20,000 bases of DNA from Euglena gracilis (Eukaryota), in the NCBI GenBank assembly GCA_039621445.1, contig CP154954.1, positions 11,180,923-11,200,922 on the forward strand, written 5' to 3'. The notes under the pieces are model-generated. The model searched no databases and was not told the DNA's origin. It saw nothing but the letters and a program-made list of their open reading frames with translations. Position numbers and translations under genes: made by a program. Positions 947 through 20,000 of this stretch are shown in pieces (within the stretch, counting starts at the first letter, position 1; each line of letters opens with the position of its first letter).

Positions 947-3204
947 TCGCGGAAAAATAGGGGGGTATGAGTTTCCGTACGCGTAATGCGACGGGGTGCG
1001 GCAGTGCGTCCACGCCGGCGCCTTCCACGCAATGGTGAAATGGCGATGCTGCGATATACACGGGAAACGGGTAGTGAATCGAGCATATTGTCCGCAGTGT
1101 CGGATCGACGTGCGAACTGGTCAGCCTCATGGCTGCCATGAAAAGTCGCATCACCCTCATCCGGGTTCCAAGGATAATTCCAGGGGGCTCGGCTGAGAGG
1201 ATCCGCAACGTTTTGCGTGTGACCTGGGGTATAGATAACCACCAGGTGAAACTGGCTCAAGAACTCATGCCAGCGGCATCTTCTGCCAACTGATGACATG
1301 GCCTTGTTTAGGTCCTCGGTATACCAGTGTTGAAGGCTCTCATGATCCGTCAACACGCGTATCTGGACCAAGCTGCTGGCTATCCAGCTGCGGAATGTCT
1401 GGAGAATAAGCACAATGGCATATGTCTCCTTTTCGCGAATGCTCCATTTAACCTGTCCTTTCCCGTTGTCGCCCTGCAGCTTCCTGCTGAAGACAGCCAC
1501 AGGTCGGAGTTCATTCGCCGCATTATGCGGGCTAAGAACCCCGCCAACTGCGTAATCGCTGCTGTCGACTTCCAGGACATACGGTTTATATGGTTCCGCG
1601 ATATCGAGAACCACGTTCTCGAGCAGCAAGTTCTTGATTTTATTCAAGGCCTCGCGCATTTGGTCATCCCAAATGACTTTTGCGTTATCGGGTGTCCGAT
1701 TTTTGAGTTGTCGGGTTAGGGGTATCGCGATTTTCGCGAAATCTTTCATATAAACCGCGTAATATTGGGCTAATCCCAAAAATCCCTTTAAATGCGTTAA
1801 GGTCTTAATGACCACAGGAGTCCATTTCTTAATGGCATCCATCTTACTGGGTGCGGCTTTACGCTGCCCGTTGCTCAGGATGTGTCCGCAAAACTTAATA
1901 ATTTTGCGAAACAGGTGCATTTTGGAACCCTTCACAAAAAGCACATGCTTTTGGAACGCGGATAACAGCGCCCGCACATCGCGATAATGCGGTTCGAGGA
2001 TATCCTCGCCCGATTTCGCGGATGGTGGTTGGGATCCCACCAGTACATCATCGATGTACACCAGAGCAAACGGTAAAACGCGCAAAACCCACTCTATCAT
2101 GCGTTGAAACATGGCTGGGCCATTCTTATCACCCATGGGGAGTACCATCCATTGGTACACACCCTTGGATGTCACAAATGCCGTGTACGGTTGCGAATCA
2201 GGATGCAAATGCATCTGATGGAAACCGTCTTCCAGATCAAAGATTGACCACAACCGGTTATCCGATTGTCTGGTGATCAAATCCTCGATCAGCGGTAACG
2301 GGGAGGGGTCATCCCTCGTTTGGAAGTTCAGGTACCGGTAATCCAGCACTAGTCTCCACTTCTTCTGACCAGACTGGTCAGCAGGTTTGGGCACCACAAA
2401 ATCCTGTGATGTCCATTCGCTCTTGGAAGGGATAACCCACTTCCGCTGGATGAGCTTCTCAATCATCTCTTTCAGAGCTTGCTCGCGTTCACCTGAACAA
2501 CGGAAGAATTTCCGGTGCATGGGTTTAGCGCCATCCTTGAGCTCGATTTTGCAAACACCGAACGGACCGCGAATCGCGGGGTCGATGTCGCAGGCGTATA
2601 CTGGGTTATCCAGTACACCATGAAATTCGCGAGTAATTCGCGAACAGTAGTCAGCAGACTTGGGGTGTTGGTCCGCACTCTCAACGACCGCAGAAATCTG
2701 CGTTGAGGGTGTGGCATCCCAATTGGTACCAAGGTATCTTGGCACACACACATCGGATATTCCGAGTGCGTCGAAGAAACAAATGCGAAAAATGATTTGT
2801 TTAACAGGTGGTAATAATATACCACAAAAGTCCTCGAATAGTGGTACATCAGCGGGTAAATCCCACGAATGAAAACACACAGAGGATAGTTGGTGAAACC
2901 AATCTGCATTCGGACTGACAGGTATGAGGGGAGCTCGCCGCGTTTCATCGCGGGGGATTTTCTCCACCACATCCGGGATAAGTTTTGGGGGAGGGTGCAT
3001 CCAGAGGACCGTATCACCCCAAAATTTTAGAAACACGTTGGAATGTCGCGACCAATATCGTGACAAGCGCGCATGCGCTTTTGATGAAAACGCATCAATT
3101 TCCAACGACAAATCGAAGGAATCGGCCAAAACCGCCATTTTGGAGGACGATCCCTCCAAAATACGGTATTGACCAAAATTAAATGCGTTCCATACACGCA
3201 TCAC
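907..3204 (-). CDS. pol: Pol segment: methyltransferase-like domain + reverse transcriptase + RNase H (open fragment of a disrupted pol)
   Basis: RT motifs WRLVLDYRYLN, FDLEDGFHQM, MVLPMGDKNGPAMFQR, YIDDVLV, FCGHIL. Gypsy RNase H motifs LEVDSSDYAVGGVL, EKETYAIV, TDHESL, NVADPLSR. Confidence 0.95.
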   Translation of the reverse strand: MMRVWNAFNFGQYRILEGSSSKMAVLADSFDLSLEIDAFSSKAHARLSRYWSRHSNVFLKFWGDTVLWMHPPPKLIPDVVEKIPRDETRRAPLIPVSPNADWFHQLSSVCFHSWDLPADVPLFEDFCGILLPPVKQIIFRICFFDALGISDVCVPRYLGTNWDATPSTQISAVVESADQHPKSADYCSRITREFHGVLDNPVYACDIDPAIRGPFGVCKIELKDGAKPMHRKFFRCSGEREQALKEMIEKLIQRKWVIPSKSEWTSQDFVVPKPADQSGQKKWRLVLDYRYLNFQTRDDPSPLPLIEDLITRQSDNRLWSIFDLEDGFHQMHLHPDSQPYTAFVTSKGVYQWMVLPMGDKNGPAMFQRMIEWVLRVLPFALVYIDDVLVGSQPPSAKSGEDILEPHYRDVRALLSAFQKHVLFVKGSKMHLFRKIIKFCGHILSNGQRKAAPSKMDAIKKWTPVVIKTLTHLKGFLGLAQYYAVYMKDFAKIAIPLTRQLKNRTPDNAKVIWDDQMREALNKIKNLLLENVVLDIAEPYKPYVLEVDSSDYAVGGVLSPHNAANELRPVAVFSRKLQGDNGKGQVKWSIREKETYAIVLILQTFRSWIASSLVQIRVLTDHESLQHWYTEDLNKAMSSVGRRCRWHEFLSQFHLVVIYTPGHTQNVADPLSRAPWNYPWNPDEGDATFHGSHEADQFARRSDTADNMLDSLPVSRVYRSIAISPLRGRRRRGRTAAPRRITRTETHTPLFFREWVIRVTLYIVPL
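2767..3171 (-). other. Dam/N6-adenine DNA methyltransferase-like domain inside Pol, N-terminal to RT
   Basis: IDAFSSKAHARLSRYWS...NVFLKFWGDTVLWMHPPPKLIPDVVEKI..DE....LIPVSPNADWFHQL follows the spacing of the phage-Dam/DIRS MT pattern (D-x-F-A-S..N...Y/F-x-S...DAF...W....NPP(Y/F/W)..I..V+.K......++P.W....W). The catalytic NPPY-type motif reads HPPP here. Confidence 0.75.
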
Positions 3205-4600
3205 GTACGTGTCGACCTGGTTCGTGGCAATTCAGGGATCCGCAAACATAAGTCAAGGGTGTGTTATCCACACTCCCTAGGGGCATTCCCAAGGGTTGAT
3301 GGGTTGGATGGGTTAATACCCAGTCCGTATCATGCGAGATGGAGGTGGGGGAGGTGTGTGACACGGATTTCGCGGTCCCAAACAACAAGGCAATACCTCG
3401 TTGTTGGAGCACTTGATGTACGGTCGCACATTGCGATCCGCAACCAAGTGTATGGTTACGCGAAATCGGGATTAGTGTTGGTGTTTGGACTAGACATCCA
3501 CAATCGAAATCTGTCTGGGCAGAAATTCTCCTTCAGTGCACACATTGGAAGGTAGTGTCGGAGTAGTGGTCCTGGTCGCGCATGTTGGTCTGGTGGGTGT
3601 GTGTGTAAAAGTTGGAATGCGCTCTTGTAGCTGCTGGGGGCTGTACAGATGTATCTGAAAGCGATACATCTGGTGGAAAACGGGGTGTTGGTGCAGCTGG
3701 GCGACTACTGGACACCGTACGTACTTCGGGCCTTTGGGCTTTCGTCTTGTAACCCAGTGGAACGAGGGGGGTACCGCTACTCGCTTGCCCTGCCTCATGG
3801 GGAACGGACGTTGGTGTGTCAATGGGCAGGGGGTGAACTTTCTCGGTACACCCGGTGTGGAAAACGTTGGTTGGTGTGGTTGGTAACGGGGTAAAAAATT
3901 TTGAAAACGGTGTGAAAAAATTGGTGGTCGTCGCGGTTGACGCCACAGGTGCTGAAGGTTTGAAGGGCAATGAAGAGAATGGTGATGTGCGCAAACCGTG
4001 GCAGTGGCAATCCACTACCAGCCGGTGCTGACGTGAAAAGGGGTATCCCAGAATTACGTCAGAACCATGGATTCCGGATTAGGATCCCCAGGTGTCCGGA
4101 AAATTTTGTGGTTGGGGGGGGTGTGAGTGGTGCTTGGGGATGAGGGGTAGGACAATGTCGAAAAAGCATCCCAAGTCACCACCACACATGGGGGTGTTGT
4201 CAGCCGTCGTAATTTTGCTCGGATTCTTGGCTTTCACCAAGAGGGGGGTTGGTATCAACCCGAACCGAAAAAGTAGTGCAATGCGACAACCAGTGTCAAT
4301 GATAATTCTGACTTTTGCACAAAAATTTTGTATTTTGGTTTCCGCTTGGACCAAAAGTTCCATGGGGGGTAAGCAAAGTGAAGGGTCTGGCGAAAATAAG
4401 TTTTCTTACCAGCTTTCCCACCAACCCTTTCCTACTTTGCACAACATTCCGAGCAAAAAGTTGGAGTGGGGGGTGGGGGACCCGAAAATTTCCCGGGTAC
4501 CGACCAGAAAGGCAGATGGGCAGGGGCGGCAGGGTTGATGAGGTCCTACATCCATCTGTTCACCAGCCCAGAGGTCCGTGCCCTCGGACCTCGGGCTCCC
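3179..4600 (-). pseudogene. pol: 5' pol of copy A: aspartic protease plus Pro/Thr-rich linker, disrupted
   Basis: IIDTGCRIAL active-site motif and GIHGSDVILGYP motif. TAA at 4079-4081 (GAA in copy B), TGA at 3533-3535, and a frameshift near 3200. Confidence 0.85.
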
Positions 4601-4603
4601 CTA
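4565..4603 (-). promoter_or_regulatory. gag TAG plus 3' stem-loop (candidate readthrough signal), copy A
   Basis: Minus strand reads TAG GGG AGCCC GAGGTCCG AGGGCA CGGACCTC T GGGCT. The frame after the TAG continues into the protease. Confidence 0.7.
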
Positions 4604-5719
4604 CTCCAGGTCCGAACCGGCCGAATAGCCGGCTATGGGCCTTTTAGAGGTGTAAACGGATTTCAACGTGCGCACTGCCATGCGGGCACCGGCTGACCTA
4701 CCCCGAGGGGTACTGTGTTTCCGCTCATCGCGGAACGGGATTCGGGAGCTAATACCACCGGAACGGGGACCCGATGACCGTGAATTGCCTGATTGGCGTG
4801 AAAATGCGGAGGAACCCGAACCCCGTGAAGATGTCGAGCCTCGCGGACTCTTAATACGCTTACGCGCTTCAGGATTAGGACATTCCCGAGACATATGTCC
4901 CGCTTTGTTGCACAAAAAGCGCACGTTATCCGTGGCTTGGTCCGAAGAACGCGGATATCGCGTTTTCGATCCGGTGGTAGGTGAAGTGGGTGAAACCGGT
5001 GATTTTTGCAATGCGTTCACCGAACCAGCCGGTAATCCACCGGTTGGGTGTGCGTTATACGCGGATTGAATCTGACCAAGAAGCTGTGATAGCTTCAACT
5101 GCTTGGAAACGTAATTCCAGCGTTGGTCAAGAGGCATTGGATGACTCGCCAACTCCTCACGGTGGATATCCTTGATGAGGCTAGGCGTGAAATGCAGGAG
5201 AACAGCATCAAACTGTTCGCGCACTTGCTTTTCACTGAGTTCATCCACTTCAGCGGCAAGTCCTAACCATTTGGCATACCAAAGGTCAATGGACTTCCAC
5301 TTGCGGTCGGGTGGGGCGCATTGCCGCCACTTGGTCTCCAGGGTAATCCTAGCGACCAAACTTGAACTGGTGGAAGCGTATTGCTCCACCAGGTCATCAA
5401 AGGAAACGCGGTAGCTAATAACGAGTTGTCGCGCGCGTTCCTTCTCATCCCTTGGGAGGCAATCGATGAAGTCCATCTTGATCACCTCCGGGTTTGTGTC
5501 CTGGGTTGGCCCTTTCATTGCCCAGTAGTACTCCCAGTCCCGGAAAAACTGTCTCCATGTGGTTGGATCACCGTCCCATTGGGGTTTCACCTTATTCGCG
5601 ATTGCGATGGTGCCCTTGAAGTCTTTCTGAACAACCCAATGACCCTCGGTGGTATTCCGCGGTTTTGGGCCTGGGTACGCTCGAGCACCAAGCGTATCCT
5701 TTCCGGATTCCTGTCGGAA
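4601..5719 (-). CDS. gag: Gag core of copy A (capsid-like region, degenerate CCHC knuckle, Ser/Arg-rich tail with a 411-bp internal deletion)
   Basis: KPQWDGDPTTWRQFFRDWEYYW retrotransposon-gag-like start and RFLCNKAGHMSRECP knuckle (first Cys intact in copy B). Lies directly upstream of the protease. No ATG precedes the capsid-like start. Confidence 0.85.
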   Translation of the reverse strand, partial: FRQESGKDTLGARAYPGPKPRNTTEGHWVVQKDFKGTIAIANKVKPQWDGDPTTWRQFFRDWEYYWAMKGPTQDTNPEVIKMDFIDCLPRDEKERARQLVISYRVSFDDLVEQYASTSSSLVARITLETKWRQCAPPDRKWKSIDLWYAKWLGLAAEVDELSEKQVREQFDAVLLHFTPSLIKDIHREELASHPMPLDQRWNYVSKQLKLSQLLGQIQSAYNAHPTGGLPAGSVNALQKSPVSPTSPTTGSKTRYPRSSDQATDNVRFLCNKAGHMSRECPNPEARKRIKSPRGSTSSRGSGSSAFSRQSGNSRSSGPRSGGISSRIPFRDERKHSTPRGRSAGARMAVRTLKSVYTSKRPIAGYSAGSDLE

Positions 5720-7590
5720 TCACGAGATTTCTGGTGAAGGTGAATCCTGGTACCGGAAATACGGTCGCAAACCCTGTTGGTCACCCGTAATACGGGGACT
5801 CTCCGGTGTGAGGGTATGTGGCGCATGCAACGTGTGGCCCACTCCCGGTGTACGGGTTTGGCTCATTCCTAGCACAAGCATGGAATGATGGATTTCATGG
5901 TGGAGACTTGGCGGAATCGCCGTGTTTTCCGCAAATTCGGTTCCCGTAATTGGAAATTCATCCGAAAACTAGGTTTGGGTTGTGGGCAAGGCCAATGGTG
6001 GCACATTTCGCGGAATCGCGGATTGTGACACTCGGGATACGGGTGGTGATTTGGCGCAACTTCGGCAATGCATACTGCCGAATTGCGGTGTGAAACCCGC
6101 TGTTGGTTGGACACATTATCCAAACCCACAGACAAGTCATGCACACTTTGCTCCAAATGCTCAACGAGTTGGAGTTGGTCGCAAATATGGTCAATTTCAT
6201 CCTCCAAAACGCGAATACGCTTGCGGTAACGGGAAAAGTCATCCAAGTGCGGAATCCTTTCGGAAATTACGGTAACATCTTGGACAAGCTTCCCGTGAGA
6301 CTTATCCAATGATTGGAGTTGTCCCATTAATGCTTTTACAGCATTTGACAGAATCTGCAAAGGTGATGTTACCTTGGTTGGTGTGGTGGTGGGTGCCACC
6401 GGTGCAGGGTTATCCGACAACGCGGTTGTGGTACCCACGGCAAATTTCCGGGTTGTGGTTTATCCAAAAACGCGGAAATTCGCTCATCCAACCTGGTGAT
6501 CTCACTTAGCGTGGATCAGGCGTTCCGATTCACCGATTCCTCGGTGGGAAAGTGCGGAATTGCTTTGTTGCAAACCCACAATGGCCGAGTTAATCCCGCC
6601 AATGTCGGATTGCAACTGCAACTGCAGAGAATCCTGCCGTTGTGCTACTTCCGCTACTTTCGCGCTCAGATTGGACAATCCAACGTGATTCGCGTCACAA
6701 TAGCAGGTTTTCTGATCCAAGCGGGAAAGTCGCTCCTCCAACTGCCGCACATACGTGTGGGGAGCAAAATTCTCGTTGGCTTGTGACTGGAATTGCCGAA
6801 ACGTTTCCGTTTCATCGCACAACTGCATAATGCGGTGTTGCAATTCATGGAAAGTTGCGGACAATGTGGTGAAATGGTCCATAGACACAAATCCACCACT
6901 GCTGGATGTTGCAGACGAGAAATCTCGTGCATGCAACTGTTGTTGCAAATGCAACAACGAGGAGGAACGGGACTCCATTTGTCCCGATAACTGTCGTAGT
7001 GAGTCATGCAAGTGCAGAAACTTGGAGTCATTCCGCGTTTCCGCTTCATGCATGCATTCACTAATTTGCCGGAAGTTTTGCGGGAGTTGTTGGCACATTT
7101 TGTCAAAGGTTTCCCGAAAGTTTGCAAGGTCAATACCCGCACTTTCGAAATTCCTCTGGCAATATTTGCCAACTTCCTGCAAGTAATTCCAGCAGTATTC
7201 CAGCTTGGTTAAGACATGTTTTTGGTTGTCCTCATCAAACTGGAGCACTTTGTTGAGTGCGGTTGCACAATCTGCAACGCATTGTTGCACATGGTTGAAC
7301 TGCCTCACAAGGGGGTGATCCCCGGGAAGCCGAGCAACGATATCCTGCACATCCTCAGCAGTGAGGAGCTCCACAGTGCCCTTCCCATAGCCATCCATGT
7401 GTTGGGACGTACCAGAGTATTCTGGTACCACTAGGCGAGTCTCCGGTTGCCAAGGTAGTGCGGGATAGCACCCAAGATCGGGTGGTGGTGGCAAAGCTCT
7501 GTAAGGGCTTGCCGGTGGACGAACGGGTGGTGGTTGAAAGAAACACGGGGTTTCCAACCCACCATCACCAGAGAAGCCCGGTGGCGGAAT
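5720..7590 (-). pseudogene. ORF0 or N-terminal Gag extension of copy A (coiled-coil-like), disrupted by deletions
   Basis: ORFs 6502..7593 and 5869..6438 are Q/L/E/S-rich with heptad-like runs (VRQLEERLSRLDQK; RIRVLEDEIDHICDQLQLVEHLEQSVHDL). The frame leads to TGA 5720-5722 in the gag frame. Confidence 0.7.
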
Positions 7591-7591
7591 C

Positions 7592-9728
7592 ACTCAGCCA
7601 CCGGGCTTCTCTGGTGATGGTGGGCTGGAAACCCGGTGTTTCTTTCAAACACCACCCGTTCGTCCACCGGCAAGCCCTTACAGAGCTTTGCCACCACCAC
7701 CCGATATTGGGTGCTATCCCGCACTACCTTGGCAACCGGATACTCGCCTAGTAGTACCAGAATTCTCTGGTACGTTCCAACCCATGGATGGCTATGGGAA
7801 GGGCACTGGGGAGCTCCTCACTGCTGGGGATATGCAGGATATCGTTGCTCGGCTTCCGGGGGATCACCCTCTTGTGAGGCAGTTCAACCATGTGCAACAA
7901 TGTGTTGCAGATTGTGCAACCGCACTCAACAAAGTGCTCCAGTTTGATGAGGACACCCAAAAACATGTCTTCACCAAGCTGGAATACTGCTGGAATAACT
8001 TGCAGGAAGTTGGCAAATATTGCCAGAGGAATTTCGAAAGTGCGGGTATTGACCTTGCAAACTTTCGGGAAACCTTTGACAAAATACGCCAACAACTCCC
8101 GCAAAACTTCCGGCTAATTAGTGAATGCATGCATGAAGCGGAAACGCGGAATGACTCCAAGTTTCTGCACTTGCATGTCTCACTACACCAGTTATCGGGA
8201 CAAATGGAGTCCTGTTCATCCGCGTTGTTGCATTTGCAACAACAGTTGCATGCACGAAATTCCTCGTCTGCAACATCCAGCACTGGTTGATTTGTGTCTA
8301 TGGACCATTTCACCACATTGTCCGCAACTTTCCATGAATCGCAACACCGCATTATGCAGTTGTGCGATGAAACGGAAAAGTTTCGGCAATTCCAGTCACA
8401 AGCCAACGAGAATTTTGCTCCCCACACGTATGTGCGGCAGTTGGAGGAGCGACTTTCCCGCTTGGATAAGAAAACCTGCTATTGTGACGCAAATCAGGTT
8501 GGATTAGCCAATCTGAGCGCGAAAGTCGCAGAAGTAGCACAACGGCAGGATTCCCTGCAGTTGCAGTTGCAATCCGACATTGGCGGGATTAAATCGGCCA
8601 TTGCGGGTTTGCAACAAAGCTATTCCGCACTTTCCCACCGAGTTCCGGACATTAGCGGTATTCAGACTGCCATTGTGGAACTTGAGACCGGTATGCATCG
8701 GTGTCTACCAAAGTGACGGAAATGCAGTCTTTGCCTGCAGGTAATCCGGGAACCCTGATTACCGAGAACCCTGATTTCAAGGCATTTTATGACAACATGC
8801 TCACTGACAATCAGGAAACCTTGCAAGATTTCTCCAACACAGCCTATTACGGCTTGAGGAATCGGTGAATCGGAATGCCCGATCCACGCAAGGTGAGATT
8901 ACCAGGTTGGATGAGCGAATTTCCGCGTTTTTGGATAAGCCACCACCCGGAAATTTGCACGTGGGTACCACAACCGCGTTGTCGGATAACCCTGCACCGG
9001 TTGCACCCCCACCACACCAACCAAGGTAACATCACCTTTGCAGACTCTGTCAAATGCTGTAAAAGCACTAATGGGACAACTCCAAATATTGGATGAGTCT
9101 CACGGGAACCTTGTCCAAGATCTTACCGTAATTTCCGAAAGGATTCCGCACTTGGATGACTTTTCCCGTTACCGCAAGCGTATTCGCGCTTTGGAGGATG
9201 AAGTTGACCGTATTTGCGGCCAACTCCAACTCGTTGAGCATTTGGAGCAAAGTGTGCATGACTTGTCTGTGGTTTTGGATAATGTGTCCAACCAACAGCG
9301 GGTTTCACACCGCAAATCGGCAGTATGTATTGCCAAAGATGCCTCAAATGTTCCAGAGTCGCGTTTCCATAACCCGGCTCTGGGTGCACATGCACCACCA
9401 CCACCCGTGTCCCGATTGTCACAACCCGCGAGTCCGCGAATTGTGCCACCATTGGCCTTGCCCACAACCCAAACCCAGTTTTCGGATGAATTTCCCATTA
9501 CGGGAACCGAATTTTCAGAAAAAAACGCCGATTCCGCCAAGTCTCCACCAAGAAATACAGCATTCCATGCTTGTGCGTGGAATGAGCCAAACCCGTACAC
9601 CGGGAGTGGGTCACATGTTGCATGCGCGACATACCCCTACACCGGAGAGTCCCCGTATTACGGGTGACCAACAGGGTTTGCGACCGTATTTCCGGTACCA
9701 GGATTCACCTTCACCAGAAATCTCGTGA
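7592..9728 (+). pseudogene. ORF0 or N-terminal Gag extension of copy B
   Basis: Fragments 7688..8290, 8294..8716, 9038..9667 and the tail of 9156..9728 join through a stop (TGA 8288-8290, GGA in copy A) and small frameshifts. Ends at TGA 9726-9728. Confidence 0.7.
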
Positions 9729-11259
9729 TTCTGACAGGAATCCGGAAAGGAGACGCTTGGTGCTCGAGCGTACCCAGGCCCAAAACCGCGGAATACCACC
9801 GAGGGTCATTGGGTTTCTCAGAAAGACTTCAAGGGCACCATCGCAATCGCGAAAAGGGTGAAACCCCAATGGGACGGTGATCCAACCACATGGAGACAGT
9901 TTTTCCGGGACTTGGAGTACTACTGGGCATTAAAAGGGCCAACCCAGGACACAAACCCGGAGGTGATCAAGATGGAATTCATCGATTGCCTCCCTAGGGA
10001 TGAGAAGGAGCGCGCACGACAACTCGTGATTCGCTACCGCGTTTCCTTTGATGACGTGGTGGAGCAATACGCTTCCACCAGTTCAAGTTTGGTCGCTAGG
10101 ATTACCCTAGAGACCAAGTGGCGGCAATGCGCCCCACCCGATCGCAAGTGGAAGTCCATTGACCTTTGGTATGCCAAATGGTTAGGACTTGCCGCTGAAG
10201 TGGATGAACTCAGTGAAAAGCAAATGCGCGAACAGTTTGATGCTGTTCTCCTGCACTTAACGCCTAGCCTCATCAAGGATATGCACCGTGAGGAGTTGGC
10301 GAGTCATCCAATGACTCTTGACCAACGCTGGAACTACGTTTCCAAGCAATTGAAGCTATCACAGCTTCTTGGTCAGATTCAATCCGTGTATAACACACAC
10401 CCAACCGCTGGATTACCAGCTGGTTCGGTGAACGCATTCCAAAAATAGCAGGTTTCACCCACTTCACCAAACACGGGATCGAAAACGCGATACCCGCGTT
10501 CTTCGGACCAAGCCACGGATAAAGTGTGCTTTTTGTGCAACAAAGCGGGACATATGTCTCGGGAATGTCCTAATCCTGATGCGTGTAAGCGTATTCAGAG
10601 TCCGCGAGGCTCGACCTCATCACGAGGTTCGGGTTCCTCCGCATTTTCACGCCAATCTGGCACTTCACGGTCATCGGGTCCCCGTTCCGGTGGTATTAGC
10701 CCCCGGATCCCGTTCTGCGATGAGCGGAAACATGGTAACCCCTCGGGGTAAGTCACCCGGTGCCCCGGCCAAGAAGCGTGATTCTCATCGCGAGACATCG
10801 CGATCGCGTTCGCGAATCGGATCATCTTCTTCGCGATCCTCATCGGGAAAACCCCGATACACCGGTCATGGTCGACGGGATATCCGGTCACCACGACGGT
10901 TTGACGGGAAATCGGGAAACCGATCCCCCCGTTACCCAGAATCGCGACACAAATCTCGGTGTTCGCTTTGTGGATCGAGTGATCACCACTCATCCAAATG
11001 ACTGCGTTCTCGTTCTCCCCGCCCTGGCCAACGTCACCGCGGTATGAACCGCGGTGACAAGTGTCACTCCTCCAACCGCCATAAAGTCGGTTTCAAGATA
11101 TCTTGTTTGGAGGATGACACCCCGGCTTCGGGCAGGGAGGGGGATGAGACCACGGATACCGATTTCGACGAGGCCCGCATGGCGGTGCGCACGTTGAAAG
11201 CCGTGTATACCTCTAAAAGGCCCATAGCCGGCTATTCGGCCGGTTCGGACCTGGAGTAG
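9729..11259 (+). pseudogene. gag: Gag core of copy B with two CCHC knuckles separated by an Arg/Ser-rich tract
   Basis: CFLCNKAGHMSREC (~10527) and CSLCGSSDHHSSK* (~10960-11001, last Cys position is TGA). TAG at 10446-10448 and a frameshift near 10738. Confidence 0.88.
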
Positions 11260-11295
11260 GGGAGCCCGAGGTCCGAGAGCACGGACCTCTGGGCT
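11257..11295 (+). promoter_or_regulatory. gag TAG plus 3' stem-loop (candidate readthrough signal), copy B
   Basis: TAG 11257-11259, then GGG, then a 13-bp stem 11263-11275/11282-11295 with one bulge and loop AGAGCA. Open and in frame with ORF 11305..(protease). Confidence 0.72.
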
Positions 11296-11817
11296 GATGA
11301 ACAGATGGAGGTAGGACCTGATCAACCCTGCCCCCCCTGCCCATCTGCCTTTCTGGTCGGTACCCGGGAAATTTTCGGGTCCCCCACCCCCCACTCCAGC
11401 TTTCCGCTCGGAATGTTGTGCAAAGTAGGAAAGGGTTCATGGGAAAGCTGGCAAGAAAACGTATTTTCGCCAGACCCTTCACTTTGCTTACCCCCCATGG
11501 AACTTTTGGTCCAAGCGGAAATCAAAATCCAAAATTTTTGTGCAAAAGTCAAAATTCTCATTGACACTGGTTGTCGCATTGCACTACTTTTTCGGTTCGG
11601 GTTGATACCAACCCCTCTCTTGGTGAAAGCCAAGAATCCGATCACAATTACGACGGCTGACAACACCCCCATGTGCGGTGGTGACTTGGGATGCTTTTTG
11701 GACATTGTCCTACCCCTCATCCCCAAGCACCACTCACACCACCCCCAACCGCAAAATTTTCCGGATACCTGGGGATACGAATCTGGAATCCACGGTTCTG
11801 ACGTAATTCTGGGATAC
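11260..11817 (+). pseudogene. pol: Aspartic protease of copy B, truncated by copy C
   Basis: LIDTGCRIAL and GIHGSDVILGY. Sequence after 11817 is LTR-derived. Confidence 0.88.
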
Positions 11818-11819
11818 AG

Positions 11820-12250
11820 TGTACGTCCAAAGCTTTCCCTTTTCCCCTTTTTGGGACTTTCTGTAAAAGCGTTTCGCTTTCGCCTTGGTGCGCAGCCTAC
11901 TTATTACTTATGGTAGGGAAAAGTCTTTGGAGTAACGAAAAGTGGTTTTCCCCTTTTCTTCCTAATTCCCCAAGAAGCAAAGCACAAAGCAAAGACTCAG
12001 AAGTTTCTTCTGAGATCAAGTTCGAATGTTCCGAGGGTTTTTCCCTCTGACAAAACCAATGGTCAAACTTTGGAAGAATGACAGTGAAGAATACCACCTG
12101 TGGTGGAAGGAGAGATAAGTGCTGACGTGTCCAGGGGCAGATCCCAGAAGGGTCTGCCACGATCTTACCAGCTGTGGACTTCCACAGTGGTGCGACCGTC
12201 ACAGAACCCACTCTGCAGATATCCTACAGAGCTGGGACGTGCCTGGTACA
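11820..12250 (-). repeat. Putative 3' LTR of copy C (431 bp)
   Basis: Minus strand starts TGTACCAGG (12250) and ends GGACGTACA (11820), giving 5-bp terminal inverted repeats TGTAC/GTACA. Preceded by a PPT, and the distal end coincides with the loss of copy B homology. The partner LTR is not in the window. Confidence 0.8.
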
Positions 12251-12252
12251 CA

Positions 12253-12262
12253 TCCCTCTCCC
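12253..12262 (-). promoter_or_regulatory. Polypurine tract
   Basis: Minus strand GGGAGAGGGA, a 2-nt spacer (TG), then the LTR start TGTAC. Confidence 0.8.
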
Positions 12263-13159
12263 AGGGCTACGCCCGATTCCTTCATGGACCAGGGTTTCCC
12301 AGTCCAGTCAGGATATCTGACGCTGCCCCAGGTGGGGTTCACTTCTCCATTCGGTGTCTCTCCTTTCCGCACAGTGGCATCCACCCAAAGCCCAAAAACG
12401 CACAAAAGGTTAGCCGCGTTTCGCGGTTACCTATTAGCCGTTTCGGCTTAGGTGGGGTGTGAAAAAGCCCACTGTGGGAAACGGGGCTTGGCAGGTTTCC
12501 TGACAAAGTGTCCCATCCACCCACTTTGGGTGTGCCAAAGGCACGCGGGGTTGGTCAAGCGATTCGCTGAAAACCCGAGGGGAGAGGTGTGGAAGGGGGG
12601 GGCAGGCTCCTATCCTGGTCATACCCGGATAGGGCTCCTAGGCGGTCATACCCGCACTAGGAAACAAAAGCCTACTTACAAAACCGACTGCCGGCGACAG
12701 CTTTGCGAGGGTGGGGGGAAAGTAGGGAGGAGAGGGGGGCTGGCTTAGGCCAGAACAGAATTTTTGCTGTCTGGCAGCCTTAAGAGGCCTTAGGGCCGAA
12801 AAGTGACAAGTTGGCCTATTATTACGGCGTGCGCGCTGTGTGCTGTGCGTCACTTAGCGGCTTGCCAGGTTTCCCGGCTGCCAAGGTCTTCACAGCAGTA
12901 GCTCCTTCACGATGCAATAAGAAGCGATTACCTCTTGCAGACGGTTTCCGTCCGCATGGCCATGGGCAGAGGGGTGGCTGGTGGCGGGGGGGGGGAAGGG
13001 CTCTTGGATGCTTCCATCCAGAGCGCAGAATGACACAGACCCGGGTTCATCCCAGGGCTGTTGAGCGATTTCCGCTACCAGTGTATATATATAGTATATG
13101 GATGTCCAGGCTCCATGAAGGCACTTACCTTACATGAGCCTGGTAATGCCGTTTCGGCA

Positions 13160-16100
13160 TTACATCCGTTCCAGCCGCCAATAATCATGGCGGGAGTCCA
13201 AGGGATCTTCCCCAAGGACCATCTGGAATTGTGGTGGTGGTGGCCTGTCTACGAGCCAGGTTTCTGGCGATTCGTATTCGAAATCAGGTGCCACCCAGTC
13301 CCGAACCCATCCTTCGGGGACTGTGTGCTTGGTTACACTCGCTCTTTCCGCGAGGAACCACTGCAGCTACTCCCAGAATTTCCTGGGCAGAGTTGCTGGC
13401 CAGATGAAGTGGTTCATCCTTGGGTGATTGGCTGACACCTGCGGGGCATTCCCCGGGTGGAAGTCAATCGGCACGTGATACGCACATTCTGCGCGGACTG
13501 TATGGGGTCGTAATACGGCCCCAAGCCAGTCTTTCCAGGTCATCCCGTGGTTTTCGGGTGGCCATTGTGGCAGACACCAGCGACCGTTTCGGTCCTGGTT
13601 TTGGAACAGGCTGAAAAGTATCTTTTCCCTGTCTGCTGTCTCCCAGAGGTAAGGTAATCTTACCCCTGCCTCCTCAGCGGCGAGGCGTATCGCCCCACCG
13701 TCGATCTGCCACCCACGGGCCATTCCCGTGTGGCGGGAGTCGTCGAGCTTGAGGTTGGCATACTTGAAAAAGTCCTTGAACTTTTTGTTCAAGGTGGAGT
13801 ATTCCTCCAGTGGCTTCTCGGCACTTGGCACGATTGTGGGTACTGCGCCTTCCGCAGTGTGCCAGAAGGTACCTCGAAGGCAGTTGACGCAGAGTATCGG
13901 TACATTCGTACCGTCTCGTTCATTGGAACTGAAATTGTGCTTGTGGGTCCAACTGTCCACGCACTTGGCGCATACCAAGGCGGCACAGTTAGGGATGTAT
14001 ACATCCTTATGGAAGGATTTCCGATCCACAGGGTTGCACACATGGACGAGGAGTAATCCCAGGTCAGGTGCACTGTTATACATCTTGTGGCATACAGTGC
14101 AAAGCCACACAAAACGGTTTTCCGTTGTCTTGTCGATGAGGAATTCCTCACCGAAGTAATGGGCCAAAACACGGGGAATCTGGAATTGTAATAATTCCAG
14201 GTCACGTTCTGATCAAAGGACCATTTTCGGCCCTGACAGAACAGTGGCTCAATCCACCGGTTGGGGCATTGCTGTGTCCTCAGTTTGTGGTCGATCATCA
14301 TGTACCTGGGTTTCAGGTCATGAATCTCAGGATCATCCTGATTGACCGCGTTCCAGTCGATGATAACTTCGTCTTCCGAAGGTGTCTCGGCTGTTGAGGC
14401 GCGGGATTTTCCCTGCCCCTTTGACGAAGGTTTCGGCTGTGAGGTTTTCCCATAGCCGGATGATGTGACGTGCGTGAATCCTTGTCCCGAGGGTAATCCC
14501 CGAGAGGAGGATGCAGCACTCTGGCCGCCAGCACCACCACCGCCTTTCGGTGGGGGCTGATCACCAGATCTCGGTGCGGGCTTACAAGGTGCGGCGCCCG
14601 GCTTTGATTTTGCCGGGGCCTTCGGGCATCCGGTTTCCGGAGCATCCGAGGGCCGCCGATCGGCGTCGCGCTTGCTTGCCCAGGTGCGTGGTGACGCTTG
14701 GGACGGGGGTCGTCTCCCCGACACCGAGCGTCGTTGACCTTCAGCAGGGGTTTCCCGGGCTGAGGGCCGTCAAACGCGTTCCCTCGCGGCTTCCGTGGGT
14801 TTCCCAGGGGCAGCCGTGGGGGATGGTGTGGGTGTAGGCTCGGCCGGCACGCTTCGTACTGGTTGAGCCTGTGGTGGGGGCATGGACGTCCGCTTGGCCT
14901 GCTTTTCAGGCGCCGGTGTCCGTGTGCCCGGATGCTTTGGTGCAGTGGCTATGGCTGTGCGCTGAGGTGCGGGTTCATCCCGTGCCTCGGCTGGCGCTAC
15001 CGGTGCTGATACAGGTTCATCCTGTACCGACACGGTTGTTGTTGTCTCCACTGCCATTGTTGTCTGTTCGCCTTCCGTCCGTGTCGCTTCCGACACCGGT
15101 GGTGGCGCCGCCGCTGGGGGAGGTTCATCCTCCACCATGGCTGTTGTGTCACGTGTGTCTTCTGTCGGCTGGGCAGCTTCCGCCGCAGCTGTGGAAGAAC
15201 TGGCCGCTGTGCCACGTGGGGTGACAACTGCGATGAGTGACCGCAAACCACCGAGTACGCGTCCGCCTAGCAAGGTGCGTCGTTCCTCACCTGAAGTGGG
15301 CTCCTCGGTTGGCTCCTCTGTTAACGGGGTTTCCCCGGGAACAGGGAGCTTGAGGCGTAATACCTCAGGCGTGTGGGGCACCGTCTCCGGCGGGTTTTCC
15401 CGCGGAGGGGTCGGTCTGCCCGTCGTACCCAGTGAGGCTGGCGACAGTGGGACAGGCGTCATTTCACCTGTCGGCGATCCTGGGCGCTGGGCAGTTTCTG
15501 CCACAGTGTCCAGCATCACGACCGATGGGCTACGGGTTTTCCGTGCAGGGGGTTCCACTGGCTGACGTTCATCCTCGGCCATAGGGACCGTTTCTTCCTC
15601 CTCCTCCGCTTCCGGAGGGTAGTCCTCTGTGTGGAGTTGTGCTGCAGTGCGCGGGTCCTTTCCGCTTCTGTAGCACCCCTGTGCGTCGGACAGGCGGTAA
15701 AAGCTTATACTTTCACTCCTGTCAGAGTTGGGGTAAGGAGGCGGCCACGACGCTCTCACCCAGCTTCCGGGTGGAGGTTGCGGCTCGTCCTCGTTGATCA
15801 GGCAGAGGTCTTCCCACTGCGATCGAAGGTTCCATCCCATACCCTGCTCTCCTGTGTCTTCCAGGAAAGCGGGCAATGGGACCGTATACCGAGTGTGACT
15901 TACCTCGCGTGCTGCGAAGAAAGGTTCGAACTACTTCCAGTCGAGGATATCCCCGAACTAGGTGTCCAGGTGATCCCGCAGACCACTTTCTGCCTGCTCC
16001 CATTCCGGCCGCAGGTTCATCCTGCGTCGGTCTGGGTCATGAGGTCTGGCGTCCACCTCGGTGTATCCCCGAGGTAACCACTTCCTGTGGATATCCACAT

Positions 16101-18591
16101 CAGTGGTCATCTGTTCCAGGAAATAAATGTAGACTTCCAGGACGTAGGTAATCCACGCCCTGTGCCGGTACTGTTGTAGCAGAAATATTTTCTGCCGGTG
16201 CTGTTTCAGCACCTTTCGATCTTGTGTCCCAATCTGGGGATTCCGGCACTGATGCAGGAGGAATCTCCTGGTCGGCTGGCTGCCGGCACTTTCGGCAGTC
16301 GGAGGCGGTTTTCCGCGTTCTCCGAAACCCCAGAAGTCAGCAATGTGAACTTCCTTGCAAAACTGGCATTCCAGTTTGTACCGCTGGGGGTACGCGAGGT
16401 CGATGTCCAGCACCTTGAACAGCGTGCCATACATGCTGTCCAAGTATACTTGGAGGTTGCGTGTGAACATTACCGCAGCCTGCGCCAGGAGTTTCTCCGG
16501 CAGGGGGTAATATTTCCACTGGATTCCCAGTGCTCCGACGGAATACATGTGGTTGAAGATTTCCTTCAACTGTGCTACGAACGTTTCGTCGTCAGGACAT
16601 GTTCCCAAACAGTCGGCATACGTATGACCGTGTCGGTCGGTAAAGATGCCGAAGTTCTGGCAGGGGTATCCCAACCAGAACCACAGCTCCCAGAAACCGG
16701 ACATCCGGTCCAGGACTATTTCATCCGAATGAGGGTATCCCTCAAACGCATAAAGTTCTGAACTGTAGAAAAAACGTTTGCAGTGATCGTACATACGATT
16801 CTGCACCACTTCGAGCACCGCATCCGGTGGTCGGTGGATCACGTTGCTTGCGTGTGTAAACTGTTGGAGATCTTCGTCGATTTTCGGCCAGATCTCCTGC
16901 AGGTAGGTGAAAACTACAGTAACATCATCGTCCTTCGTTTTCGAAGGTTCGGCGGCTTTTCCGCCCTTGCCTGCTAGGGGTCGGGCAGATTTTCCGCCTT
17001 TACCTGGAGTTGGCCAAGCGGCTTTTCCGCCTTTGCCAGGTGGGGCTTTCCCACCTTTCTCCTGGCCTTTTCCTTTCCCCTTACCCTTGCCCTTGCCTTT
17101 ACCCTTAACCTTTGTGTTAGACAGCCATTCGAATGTCGCCCAGTAATCCCACTATTCTGGGTCTTCTGGCGTAAACACAGGGTAAGTCACCGATTCCGTG
17201 CTTGGCGTTCGAGCAAATTCCTGCTCAGCGTCACCACGATTCGAGTAAACCGGTGCGACTGGGGATAGTCGAGTTTCCCGACGTGCCCGTTCTGCCGTCA
17301 CGTCCGGCGCTGGCGGAGCTTCCTCCTCAGCGTCGACGTGCATCGTCGCGGGCGGATTTTCCGACCTCGGCGAGCGGCGCTGTGGCTGCGGCGTCAGATG
17401 TTCCGGGCCGCGGTCACGCTTGCTGGCGGCAGAGCTTGTGGGTCGTGCTGGTGGCGCTTCCGCCACAGCAACGTCCTGCTGTCGCGCTGGTTGACTTGAT
17501 CGTGATGGAGCTGGGACGCCTGTGAGAGCTGACACAGCAGCATCATACTGCTGGCGCTCTTCCCGTGTCATTTCCGCCCGGGCAGGGTATCCCTGGCCAG
17601 CGGAAACAGGGGGGCGACGTGCGATTTGTCGTTGGATCGTCACAGCATATTCATACTGTTGACGCTCCTCCTCCGTCTCGAACGGCCGGCCAGTCCACGG
17701 GTTAACGGGTTCATCCCGTGCCGGGGGAACTGGTGCCGCACGAGGTGCTGCCGCGGCTTCCCGCGGACGAGCGCTTCGGGTCGCCTCAGACGTCAGGGGA
17801 GGGTTTCCCTCCGCAGGACGTCGTGAGATAGGGTCAGGTATGGTTGGGTGGGGTTGAGGTGGATACACGTACTGATCCCGTGGCATTGGCGCCTCCCGGG
17901 GGTAATCCCCAGAGACGGTGTACTGAGACACAGGCTCCTGCGCAGGATAATCCCGCCGGGGCATGCGCTCAGGGGATCGAAAAATACTTTCTTTCACACG
18001 TGGGTGTTCACTCCGGACAGGTGCTTCCACTGTCTCTTCCTCGGGTAATCCGGGGGAGTGAGCACGAAAATGTGCGGTGTAAGTGCCAACTGGTGGTACC
18101 TGCCGTGCTACCTGTGGCGGGACTTCCAAGCCCAGGTCACGCATGGTAATGTCCGCCGCGAATCCCGACGCGTCCGGGTCGGTGTAATACACAAGACCGG
18201 TCATCGTCGCCTGGGCGCACATACCCCACAGGGCCGGAGGGGTATTCGCGATGGTCAAAATTTTACGGCAGTGGTCATCCCACAATGCCTGGGTGAGTTG
18301 GTCTGGTGCCAGGTTTGCGCTCATACGCATAACCCGGCTCATCGTCTTCGCCGTGCGGTGGATCATCACACCCGCATACGGTGGGAGGCGACGAGAGCCT
18401 GATGGCTGAGATGGCCGCGCTTCCGCGGGCATCTGGGTCATCCTGCTACTGCTGCTGGCTTCAGGGTTTCCCTGAGTCGCAGTCCGTGTAGGTGGCTGCG
18501 TACCGTGTCGGTACGCATACTGGTCAGTTTGAGGGTGGGTTGTGGGGTGGTAAGGCGGTCCTCCGCCTGGCTCCCTTCCACCGGGCAGCAT
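13160..18591 (-). pseudogene. Giant extra ORF (~1,810 codons) of unknown function between pol and the 3' LTR
   Basis: ORFs 17152..18591, 15958..16842, 14770..15876 and 13789..14724 share one frame, separated only by point stops (TAG 17152, TAG 15958, TAG 15931, TGA 14770). One frameshift at the T-run 14166-14169 leads into 13367..14167, then TAG 13367, then open to TAA 13160-13162. Confidence 0.8.
16955..17110 (-). repeat. Coding Gly-Lys repeat in the extra ORF
   Basis: Translates KVKGKGKGKGKGKGQEKGGKAPPGKGGKAAWPTPGKGGKSARPLAGKGGKA with varied synonymous codons. Confidence 0.8.
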
Positions 18592-18682
18592 GATACCGCC
18601 CGGGGTCGGTACGGTGGGATGTTTGGGTTGTTGGTTGTAAGATGTGTAAGGGTAACCGCTTGAGTATTATTTGCCAAAAAGT

Positions 18683-18730
18683 CTGCGGAAAGAAAGAATG
18701 ATAAGAATCAATTATAAAAAAAAGAAAACA
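18683..18730 (-). promoter_or_regulatory. Candidate splice or trans-splice acceptor upstream of the extra ORF
   Basis: Minus strand TGTTTTCTTTTTTTTATAATTGATTCTTATCATTCTTTCTTTCCGCAG|AC. The first downstream ATG is the extra-ORF start at 18591, with A at -3. Confidence 0.6.
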
Positions 18731-18751
18731 ACATGGGTTTCCCATGCGTTC

Positions 18752-20000
18752 TCAAAAACTTGTCATGGAAACATCAATGTTATGCTTCTTGTTCCACAGC
18801 TTCCAATCTTGCTGGACATACCCAACAAAACTGGTTGCTGGTTCCCAAGTGTCCTCCTCGGGCCCATACCCTCTCCAGCGGACCTTCCAAAGGTGCATAT
18901 CTTTGTCGATTTTGTGATCGATAATTTTTTCGACTACAAAGTCGTCCGTCTCAGGTAATCTGGAACGGGGTTTGAAGTGCAAACACGGGATGGGTTTCCC
19001 ATCCGGTGGCGACAGGTATGGCTTGAAGTCGTCCATATGAACGTCCTCAACACCATTCAGTAATGCAACCTTGTAACGCCCGCTGGTACCTAGTCTTTCT
19101 AACATTTCACAGGGGCCGAGCCAGAGGGGGTCCAGCTTGGAAGACTGCATGCGAGTACGGTTTTTCCGCACCCACACGCGGTCACCGGGACTATACACAG
19201 GTGACTTGAAATTCTGCAAAAACGATTTCCGTTTGGTTGCATGAATATCAGTCACGCGCTTCTGCACTGCAGAACGTAAATTTTCTACTTCCGCAAACCA
19301 GGTCTCGCAACTGACACTCGTTCGGGCGGGTCTCTCCGAAGGGACATCCCCTATTGCTGGAGGGTCCCGTCCGAAAACTAATTTATAGGGGGAGTGAGGT
19401 AAAACCAACCCTGGTAGGGTATAAAACAAAGACCATGGTAGAACTGATATCCAGTTGCTGCGCGAGTCAGCCAGTGAAAGGCGAAGCATATTCACGACGG
19501 ATTTCACGGCAGCCTCGCCTCTACCATTGCCTTTGGGTCGGTATATAATGGAAAAATGTTGCTCGATTCCGAGTAAACCGCACAAAGTGGTGAAAAACCT
19601 TGAAGAAATCAAATGGTCTTGATCACTCACGATTTCATTCGGTAAACCCATTAAGCAAACGCATTTCTCCAAAAACATAGTTGCCAAACTTTGGGCAGTC
19701 AACCCTGACTTCTGCCATGGAATGGCTACAATGTACCCACTCAGCCTGCAGACGACAACAAAAATGTAATTGTAAATTCTGTCGTCCGTTCCTTTGCACG
19801 GTTCTAATTCCAGAAAATCCATGCAGAGGGATGTAAAAATGTCAGGGGGTACAGGGAAAAAGTCCATCGTACCAGGGGGGGTACCTCTGCGGGGCTTTAC
19901 CGCTTGACAAATTTGACACCGTTGCGCTATTCGCAAACAGCGTGAGTAAAGCTCTTTCTCGCTCAGGGTTGTGCAATACCTGCGGCCCACCACGAAAGAA
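18752..20000 (-). CDS. pol: Pol C-terminus of copy C: integrase core, GPY/F-like motif and chromodomain (5' partial)
   Basis: CQICQ; D-D-E in CMDF / IVSDQD / GNGRGEAAV; YSPGDRVWV...KLDPLWLGPC; chromodomain FVVEKIIDHK...WKVRWRGYGPEEDTWEP. Stop TGA at 18752-18754. Confidence 0.95.
   Translation of the reverse strand, partial: SFVVGRRYCTTLSEKELYSRCLRIAQRCQICQAVKPRRGTPPGTMDFFPVPPDIFTSLCMDFLELEPCKGTDDRIYNYIFVVVCRLSGYIVAIPWQKSGLTAQSLATMFLEKCVCLMGLPNEIVSDQDHLISSRFFTTLCGLLGIEQHFSIIYRPKGNGRGEAAVKSVVNMLRLSLADSRSNWISVLPWSLFYTLPGLVLPHSPYKLVFGRDPPAIGDVPSERPARTSVSCETWFAEVENLRSAVQKRVTDIHATKRKSFLQNFKSPVYSPGDRVWVRKNRTRMQSSKLDPLWLGPCEMLERLGTSGRYKVALLNGVEDVHMDDFKPYLSPPDGKPIPCLHFKPRSRLPETDDFVVEKIIDHKIDKDMHLWKVRWRGYGPEEDTWEPATSFVGYVQQDWKLWNKKHNIDVSMTSF

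Follow-up and report, generated by a model that had tools for sequence, protein, structure and literature searches.

Evidence for a decayed third coding region between pol and the 3' LTR of a giant Ty3/gypsy chromodomain retrotransposon in Euglena gracilis

INTRODUCTION

Additional open reading frames (ORFs) are, to our knowledge, common among retrotransposons with long terminal repeats (LTRs), and almost none has a known function; bdelloid rotifer LTR elements, too, reportedly capture extra ORFs. Here we analyse such an extra frame in a stretch of 20,000 nucleotides (nt) from Euglena gracilis (GenBank assembly GCA_039621445.1, contig CP154954.1, positions 11,180,923 to 11,200,922 of the forward strand; hereafter the window, its first letter being position 1). 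The frame lies on the minus strand between the pol gene and the 3' LTR of a Ty3/gypsy element with a chromodomain. We read it, with a probability of about 0.7, as what decay has left of a genuine third coding region, an additional 3' ORF on the sense strand, in a very high-copy giant Ty3/gypsy chromodomain retrotransposon of at least 15 kb.

Several described elements come close. According to the passages on Retand in PMC11963269, that lineage has a pol-to-LTR region of 2.9–6.6 kb with antisense TRP28 ORFs, and the part of PMC11728184 that concerns plant additional ORFs (aORFs) distinguishes a 5' type, present in chromoviruses such as Tekay (about 400 amino acids (aa), Pro-rich and disordered), from an env-like 3' type, present in Athila. 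Ogre of legumes and Burro of planarians are giant gypsy-like elements with additional coding capacity in the account that PMC6431247 gives of them, and the portion of PMC2864245 that deals with the chromoviruses of fungi and non-seed plants draws these with an 'additional ORF with unknown function'.

The present frame resembles the aORFs of plant Ty3/gypsy elements (3' in Athila, Tat and Retand, 5' in Tekay) in that these stand beside gag-pol and, in the accounts cited, are often Pro-rich and disordered, domainless and conserved within their families, and it shares with Retand and its like a long region between pol and the 3' LTR. Within the same accounts, Retand differs in its antisense orientation and TRP28 content and Tekay in its 5' position and length of about 400 aa, whereas the frame here is in sense orientation, lies 3' of a chromodomain integrase, runs to about 1,800 codons and has a different core. 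Burro, as portrayed in its source, carries extra domains, an env-like one included, inside a polyprotein of about 4,900 aa, whereas here the extra frame is separate and 3'; Ogre owes its size largely to long LTRs and an upstream ORF, whereas the LTR here measures about 430 nt; and, unlike the present element, neither is described as a chromovirus in the relevant part of PMC6431247. To the fungal and non-seed-plant elements, which combine a chromodomain Ty3/gypsy body with an extra ORF as drawn in that scheme, the likeness is by description only. Additional ORFs being known already, what is new is the combination of a chromodomain integrase with a conserved core absent from Pfam and with a sense 3' frame that runs to about 1,800 codons; no chromovirus with a sense 3' ORF of such size surfaced in our non-exhaustive search of the literature. 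What makes the case exceptional is that the extra region, at about 5.5 kb, amounts to a third of the element and occupies, on the sense strand, the env position of a chromovirus, and that the family in which it does so has matching contigs by the tens of thousands in a single sequencing run.

RESULTS AND DISCUSSION

A long interrupted frame downstream of pol

The window is a nest of copies (A, B and C) from one Ty3/gypsy family, and the extra frame belongs to copy B. On the minus strand it is open from 18666, has its first ATG at 18591 and reaches a final stop at 13160–13162. Stops 1–4 stand in frame at 17152–17154, 15958–15960, 15931–15933 and 14770–14772; the frame then shifts at a four-letter homopolymer run (14173–14176), and the shifted frame, 14212–13163, holds one stop (stop 5, 13367–13369) before the terminal one. 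An earlier reading of these letters without database searches (the sequence-only reading) had joined five separately listed ORFs into one frame with, in total, five point stops and one homopolymer frameshift, and had placed it between the pol stop at 18752 and the polypurine tract (PPT) and LTR on the sense strand. Our own reading of the frame reproduced the join, and the position was borne out, with linkage to pol recovered in other sequencing runs as well (see below). The parts of the frame, with the tract just upstream, are as follows.

18683–18732, minus strand: tract of about 50 nt rich in pyrimidines, with AG at its end, lying after the pol stop and ahead of the extra frame (read from the sequence)
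17155–18666, minus strand: segment A, Pro-rich and mostly low-complexity N-terminal part, 504 open codons
17152–17154, minus strand: stop 1, in frame
16945–17151, minus strand: Trp-rich motif, then a Lys/Gly-rich basic tract (33-nt and 24-nt tandem units)
16250–16833, minus strand: conserved core of block 1, uninterrupted in copy B (phmmer, tblastn back to the window, and alignment A1 of the relatives)
15931–15960, minus strand: two stops private to copy B
15616–15930, minus strand: continuation of block 1, second well-kept stretch (alignment with the relative P0001)
14400–15615, minus strand: Pro/Ala/Glu/Thr-rich low-complexity spacer, including stop 4 (14770–14772)
14173–14176, minus strand: homopolymer run at the frame shift, of variable length among copies
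13163–14370, minus strand: block 2, aromatic/Cys-rich, with four C-x2-C / H-x-C pairs and including stop 5

From the composition of the region one would expect 62 stops in 1,835 codons, a figure that 1,000 shuffles reproduced as their mean, with 41 as the lowest count, whereas we observe four in the 1,497 codons before the shift and one in the 350 codons after it; the remaining five frames contain 35–56 stops each. Roughly half of the frame is Pro/Ala/Glu/Thr-rich, as one would expect if it were a chance product of GC- and purine-skewed low-complexity sequence, yet none of the 1,000 shuffles came near the observed stop count and the frame has protein relatives at E values down to 5.7e-103, with distant ones at 1e-5 to 1e-7. 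The shuffle test and the relatives refute such a chance origin, to which we give next to no credence. Because five stops stand against about 62 expected, because protein relatives exist and because other copies have sense codons at three of the stops, the extra frame is, on the evidence of its sequence, coding and not a product of chance.

Tracts with 55–69% Pro/Ala/Glu/Thr/Ser/Gly alternate with two blocks at 12–22% Phe/Trp/Tyr/Cys, whose limits by composition are about 16866–15700 and 14466–13163; these measurements match the earlier description of Pro/Ala/Glu/Thr tracts alternating with two aromatic- and Cys-rich blocks. In its position, after pol and before the PPT and 3' LTR, the frame resembles env of retroviruses and errantiviruses and the accessory genes of complex retroviruses and, like env genes, it would probably be expressed from a spliced subgenomic RNA, for which the tract at 18683–18732, with its terminal AG, is a candidate 3' splice acceptor like those of env-type subgenomic RNAs. 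Unlike env, it has neither a signal peptide (after the ATG the N-terminus is polar and Pro/Gly-rich, not hydrophobic) nor a membrane anchor (the best 19-residue Kyte–Doolittle mean, 1.32, yields no candidate span in what is a crude test rather than a dedicated predictor), and no env family matches it. Judged by these sequence features the predicted protein is not Env, in agreement with the earlier view that it is not Env-like and belongs to no recognized family, since neither a membrane segment nor an Env, Pfam or PDB sequence match was found; fold searches gave no match either, with models too poor for a comparison of folds. Additionally, no paralogy was detected between the extra frame and gag, the upstream ORFs or the rest of the element.

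Block 1 belongs to a small protein family

A word-indexed protein search with the 397-residue piece 15961–17151 as query had a single match, P0001, a protein of 319 aa encoded on a contig of 1,013 nt. P0001 is 91% identical over the shared part and has ordinary residues through both stops at 15958 and 15931. In the alignment with P0001 257 of 319 columns are identical, and they are unevenly spread: 115 of the first 120, then 23–27 per 40, then 36 of 40 (columns 241–280). A split into 155/172 against 102/147 identical columns gives a Fisher p of 3.8e-6, the split having been picked after the data were seen. The unevenness, in what is a protein-level comparison only, resembles constraint on parts of the protein.

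With P0002 as query (the window's own 15616–16941 read through, with X at two stops), phmmer against 1,835,955,588 proteins returned six at E ≤ 1e-3, two of them at E ≤ 1e-10, over a range of 1.6e-23 to 9.1e-4. Three are close or degenerate fragments (P0003, P0004 and P0006), and three are distant full ORFs: P0005 (470 aa, E 2.3e-7), P0007 (689 aa, E 1.9e-5) and P0008 (426 aa, E 9e-4). The distant three start with Met, share 25–33% identity over a common core and correspond to block 1 only. None of the six carries a name, their sources are ENA or Logan assemblies, and a Pfam scan found no domain in five of them (all but P0003). The shared core maps back, by tblastn of the relatives, to window positions 16833–16250, and in alignment A1 its motifs are W..F.LGY..N, GG(I/V)(R/Q)W, YPQ.Y.L.C-x2-C, DFWG(F/L) and H-x-C, with C-x2-C in seven of eight rows and H-x-C in six of eight; the rows lacking them are the degenerate ones. 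Moreover, in P0007 and P0008 the core is preceded by a Lys/Gly-rich tract, the window's counterpart of which lies at 17112–16950. A word-indexed profile search with A1 gave only P0007 and P0001 again, and no relative was found in JGI metagenome contigs, viral contigs or prokaryote genome contigs. Going by these alignments, block 1 is a member of a small family of unannotated proteins in which a Cys/His core is conserved, and since it has distant relatives elsewhere it does not look like a one-off capture.

Other copies read through three of the stops

A search listed 20 sequencing runs that contain the stretch or part of it, and four (X1, X16, X17 and X18) were compared over 11800–20000. X1 is a DNA run, in which 63,320 contigs match this region; X16, X17 and X18 are labelled as three other organisms or communities and are RNA-type, with DNA content possible. 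X18 is a leaf-litter metatranscriptome in which 209 contigs match the region, 20 of them at ≥99% likeness, so that the host or a close relative was present in such a sample, RNA and DNA being indistinguishable there.

At 13367–13369, 15931–15933 and 15958–15960 a sense codon stands in place of the stop in 99.9–100% of X1 depth and in every covering contig of X16–X18. For the stops at 15958 and 15931 the sense reads come from 25 and 22 contigs of X1, two and one of X18 and, at one of the two places, one of X16; for stop 5 they make up 1,007,071 of 1,008,008 in X1 depth and all covering contigs elsewhere (X16 2/2, X17 2/2, X18 4/4). At least three of the five stops therefore arose in copy B alone, and fixation of the stops in all copies, which the sequence-only reading had named as evidence against itself, does not hold for these three. 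Copy B itself is dead for the extra gene. Between 15820 and 16000 there are loose ends on both sides (12 and 8 X1 contigs, one X16 contig), and this stretch, which includes the two private stops, differs in some copies.

The selected differences between copy B and the other copies (40 of 1,186) include 24 inside the ORF, of which 14 are private to copy B and 10 vary among copies. The private ones comprise 11 non-synonymous and three synonymous changes, with two at third codon positions; the inter-copy ones divide into five and five, with seven at third positions. This pattern, in a small selected sample, is consistent with free decay in copy B and with constraint during the spread of the family.

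The frame travels with pol and the LTR

In X1 the summed word depth, a rough measure, is 0.38–0.96 million over the ORF, as against 0.89–1.04 million over the end of pol (18650–19471) and 1.57–1.59 million over the integrase core; the extra frame is about as abundant as pol. The pol stop is bridged by single contigs in three other runs, namely X17 record 24 (18593–19526), X16 record 16 (18689–19492) and X18 record 29 (18293–19191, with about 66 nt replaced), and on the other side the stretch 12263–13159 is covered by contigs of X16, X17 and X18. The extra frame is thus physically linked both to the integrase and chromodomain and to the PPT and LTR, as a regular component of the element.

Insertion of an unrelated mobile element between pol and LTR of copy B alone would be in keeping with the window itself, a nest in which copy B abuts two copies that form an inverted pair. 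However, terminal repeats of ≥20 nt, whether direct or inverted, are absent around the extra-frame region (within 12250–18752), and contigs of three other runs span the junction of pol and ORF with continuous depth, so that the termini of its own that the sequence-only reading had allowed for did not turn up; a nested foreign element is very unlikely. A subtler alternative is that a cellular gene or gene fragment was captured once by the family's ancestor and has been carried since as a passenger with no role in the element's life. The extra frame has no retroelement-type domain, its distant relatives are stand-alone predicted proteins, and copy B decays freely, all of which would suit a passenger. 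Against this stand its near-pol abundance and, in runs whose labels name three other organisms or communities, its linkage to pol, together with the uneven conservation relative to P0001 and the third-position bias among inter-copy variants; further, a retroelement would be expected to shed 5.5 kb of useless load before long. We regard a mere passenger as improbable, and favour a real third coding region.

Separately, 69 X1 contigs follow the LTR and PPT as far as 12278, to the right of which they have another sequence in common (agreement 0.74), which suggests a subfamily with the same LTR and another 3' internal region.

One gene or more, and what weighs against the proposal

A number of results weigh against our reading. 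None of six pieces of the extra frame matched Pfam above cut-off; in the PDB sequence search A1 and segment A had no match at E ≤ 1 and block 2 only matches at E ≥ 0.17; and a word-indexed protein search with block 2 gave no matches, so that no relative of that block was detected. AlphaFold2 (AF2) on the eight-row alignment gave a poor model of block 1, with a mean predicted local distance difference test score (pLDDT) of 46.4, and another poor one of block 2 alone (35.2). The block-1 model had no Foldseek match in the PDB at E ≤ 0.001, being too poor for its fold to be judged, and in the VIA fold search no chain out of 48,161 reached Z ≥ 8. For zinc binding the motifs are the sole basis. The scans of JGI metagenome, viral and prokaryote contigs brought up no genomic neighbours of P0005, P0007 and P0008; X1 is possibly the window's own source sample and its depths are rough; and no spliced RNA joint was seen in the RNA-type runs, which may contain DNA, so that their coverage of the region speaks neither for expression nor against it. 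Finally, the variant rows are those 40 of 1,186 differences, and among them none falls at the stops at 17152 and 14770, while the frame-keeping form of the homopolymer run, one letter longer than in copy B, is a minority in X1: 53,223 of 395,914 (13%) and 27,119 of 222,808 (12%) at two placements.

The last two points bear on a rival in which the frame break, and perhaps also the stops at 17152 and 14770, are the family norm, so that there would be two or more genes and a protein of 1,800 codons would never exist, block 2 being a separate ORF or reached by frameshifting. The small share of the frame-keeping run and the two stops lacking a listed variant speak for this, as does the size of P0005, P0007 and P0008, which have only 426–689 aa, start with Met and hold block 1 only. 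On the other hand the longer run was found in all four runs compared (outside X1 in the single covering contig of X16, in one of two in X17 and in one contig of X18), the pieces that follow each stop have no nearby start codon, the post-shift frame does not open before 14212, which lies 36 nt upstream of the run, and no canonical slippery heptamer was seen at the run by eye. We judge a division into several genes unlikely, yet a more serious contender than a passenger. That the shifted run is the majority in X1 may mean either that most copies descend from an already shifted master or that block 2 is a separate reading unit. Of the extra gene of about 1,800 codons that the sequence-only reading had announced, a genuine coding region stands; that it makes a single protein does not follow, given the shifted majority in X1 and the two stops without a listed variant.

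A putative accessory protein

Returning to the proposed third coding region, we suggest that its product would be a largely disordered accessory protein whose folded parts are predicted zinc-binding modules, one being the C-x2-C...H-x-C core that follows the Lys/Gly-rich tract and the other the C-terminal block with its four Cys/His pairs. On the anti-silencing or chromatin/RNA-binding role that the sequence-only reading offered as an example, only the conserved Cys/His motif and the Lys/Gly-rich tract have any bearing, and the role stays conjectural. Such a protein may bind nucleic acid or chromatin-associated partners, and may support the cycle of the element itself or the way it deals with host control, rather than cell entry; translation would probably be from a spliced subgenomic RNA, by way of the pyrimidine tract and AG after the pol stop.

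The searches for structure offer a few details. In the AF2 model only residues of about 120–210 of P0002 reach a pLDDT of 70–85, and this part is modelled as helix, hairpin, helix and three strands ending at the C-x2-C. The earlier suggestion to run AlphaFold and Foldseek on each block thus led to poor models of both blocks (pLDDT 46 for block 1, 35 for block 2) and, with the block-1 model, to no fold match. The wide rows of the VIA search all fall on one long low-confidence helix (Z ≤ 5.5) and are uninformative on the fold. The ESM Atlas gave no usable match for block 1 and, for block 2, scores of 0.81–0.85, RING clusters among them at 0.82, below the lead level of 0.9; the Pfam matches of block 2 to zf-RING_5 (E 7.7) and zf-B_box (E 8.6) are noise, the four Cys/His pairs being visible in the sequence. 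Domains of plant aORFs (TRP28 or Transposase_28-type, Athila ORF1) were absent from all six pieces at E ≤ 0.1 and from four at E ≤ 10.

A bolder proposal, which we offer tentatively and think more likely wrong than right by some distance, is that the block-1 core represents an undescribed zinc-binding family serving as the third gene of giant chromoviruses in several distant eukaryotes, where together with the Cys-rich module it would act as a counter-defence or chromatin-tethering factor that allowed the present family to overrun the genome of its host. Were this true, a retrotransposon would possess an accessory gene whose role could be compared with that of the accessory genes of complex retroviruses. 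Should the protein aid evasion of silencing or the choice of integration sites, it would bear on the inflation of genomes by single families; should it be dispensable, the family would illustrate the amount of dead load that a retroelement can carry.

The carrier element

Copy B enters the window inside its integrase and can be followed on the minus strand to the end of its 3' LTR.

11818–19999, minus strand: copy B, entering inside the integrase at 19999 and ending at 11818
18752–19999, minus strand: 3' end of copy B pol, with integrase core, SH3-like domain and C-terminal chromodomain
12263–13159, minus strand: non-coding 3' stretch from the extra gene to the PPT, with numerous stops in all frames
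12253–12262, minus strand: PPT-like purine run adjoining the start of the LTR (read from the sequence)
11818–12252, minus strand: 3' LTR of copy B, about 430 nt (contig breaks and end of likeness)

The pol stop codon is 18752–18754, and the pol end matches Pfam rve (E 1.2e-10), Chromo (E 1e-10) and SH3_Tf2-1 (E 1.9e-4); the Chromo match (PF00385) scores 41.8 bits against a cut-off of 25.1 and covers residues 354–389 of the 415-residue pol end. The integrase DNA of copies A and B is 81–87% identical. With the domain order reverse transcriptase (RT), RNase H, integrase in copy A, and with the chromodomain in copy B, the carrier element is a Ty3/gypsy chromovirus.

Near the LTR, at 12240–12269 beside the purine run, breaks with an overlap of about 30 nt occur in contigs of other runs: X17 record 17 follows 11818–12269 and then about 2 kb unlike the window, whereas X17 record 18 and X18 record 25 begin at 12240. 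Likeness to other copies ends at 11818, where the inverted-repeat arm of copy C ends on the other side, at 11817, and, read on the element strand, a loose end of X18 to the left of 11818 gives TGG..., as expected of a primer-binding site. These breaks and the end of likeness fit an LTR of about 430 nt at whose two borders the 5' and 3' contexts branch apart. Of the LTRs only the 3' one of copy B lies within the window, the 5' LTR and primer-binding site being outside; the internal sequence of the two partial copies combined amounts to at least about 15 kb, to which the LTR adds about 430 nt. The full length of more than roughly 16 kb foreseen by the sequence-only reading is plausible on these figures, while the value itself goes beyond the data.

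Remaining contents of the window

The other two copies occupy the left part of the window. Copy A runs off its left edge, so that any extra frame of that copy would lie beyond the edge.

3–720, minus strand: copy A integrase
910–3231, minus strand: copy A RT and RNase H (Pfam RVT_1 E 7e-24, RT_RNaseH_2 E 4e-21)
about 4079–4405, minus strand: copy A protease-like DTG stretch
4601–5719, minus strand: copy A CCHC gag piece
up to 7593, minus strand: copy A upstream coiled-coil ORFs
7594–11817: copy C, inverted partner of 4043–7588, 93–96% complementary over the longer pieces

An Rfam scan of the window found no family and ARAGORN no tRNA. The ratio of observed to expected CpG is about 0.9 in the coding parts and that of TpA about 0.6, CpG being not depleted, and the differences between copies are symmetric transitions, unlike the pattern of repeat-induced point mutation.

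Copies A and C form a large inverted repeat (4043–11817) centred on 7589–7593, with 5 nt between the arms; the right arm is about 680 nt longer, the excess being spread over three places. Its centre lies inside the upstream coiled-coil ORF (6502–7593 on the minus strand, 7538–8290 on the plus strand), so that both arms are cut at the identical position of the element, and the divergence of 4–7% between the arms speaks against a simple fold-back of the assembly.

Within the copy A ORF 910–3231 there is a sub-threshold Pfam match to Dam, a DNA N6-adenine methyltransferase (2893–3121, minus strand; E 0.0077, 16.4 bits against 28.1), at residues 37–113, in an extension of about 280 residues before the RT; it may be due to chance. 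Finally, upstream of the CCHC gag piece, positions 5869–7593 (minus strand) of copy A hold at least 560 extra codons, Gln/Leu-rich and coiled-coil-looking, with only a faint match to Retrotrans_gag (E 0.049). This ORF may be a very long gag or a 5' additional ORF, in which case the element may carry extra coding capacity at both of its ends.

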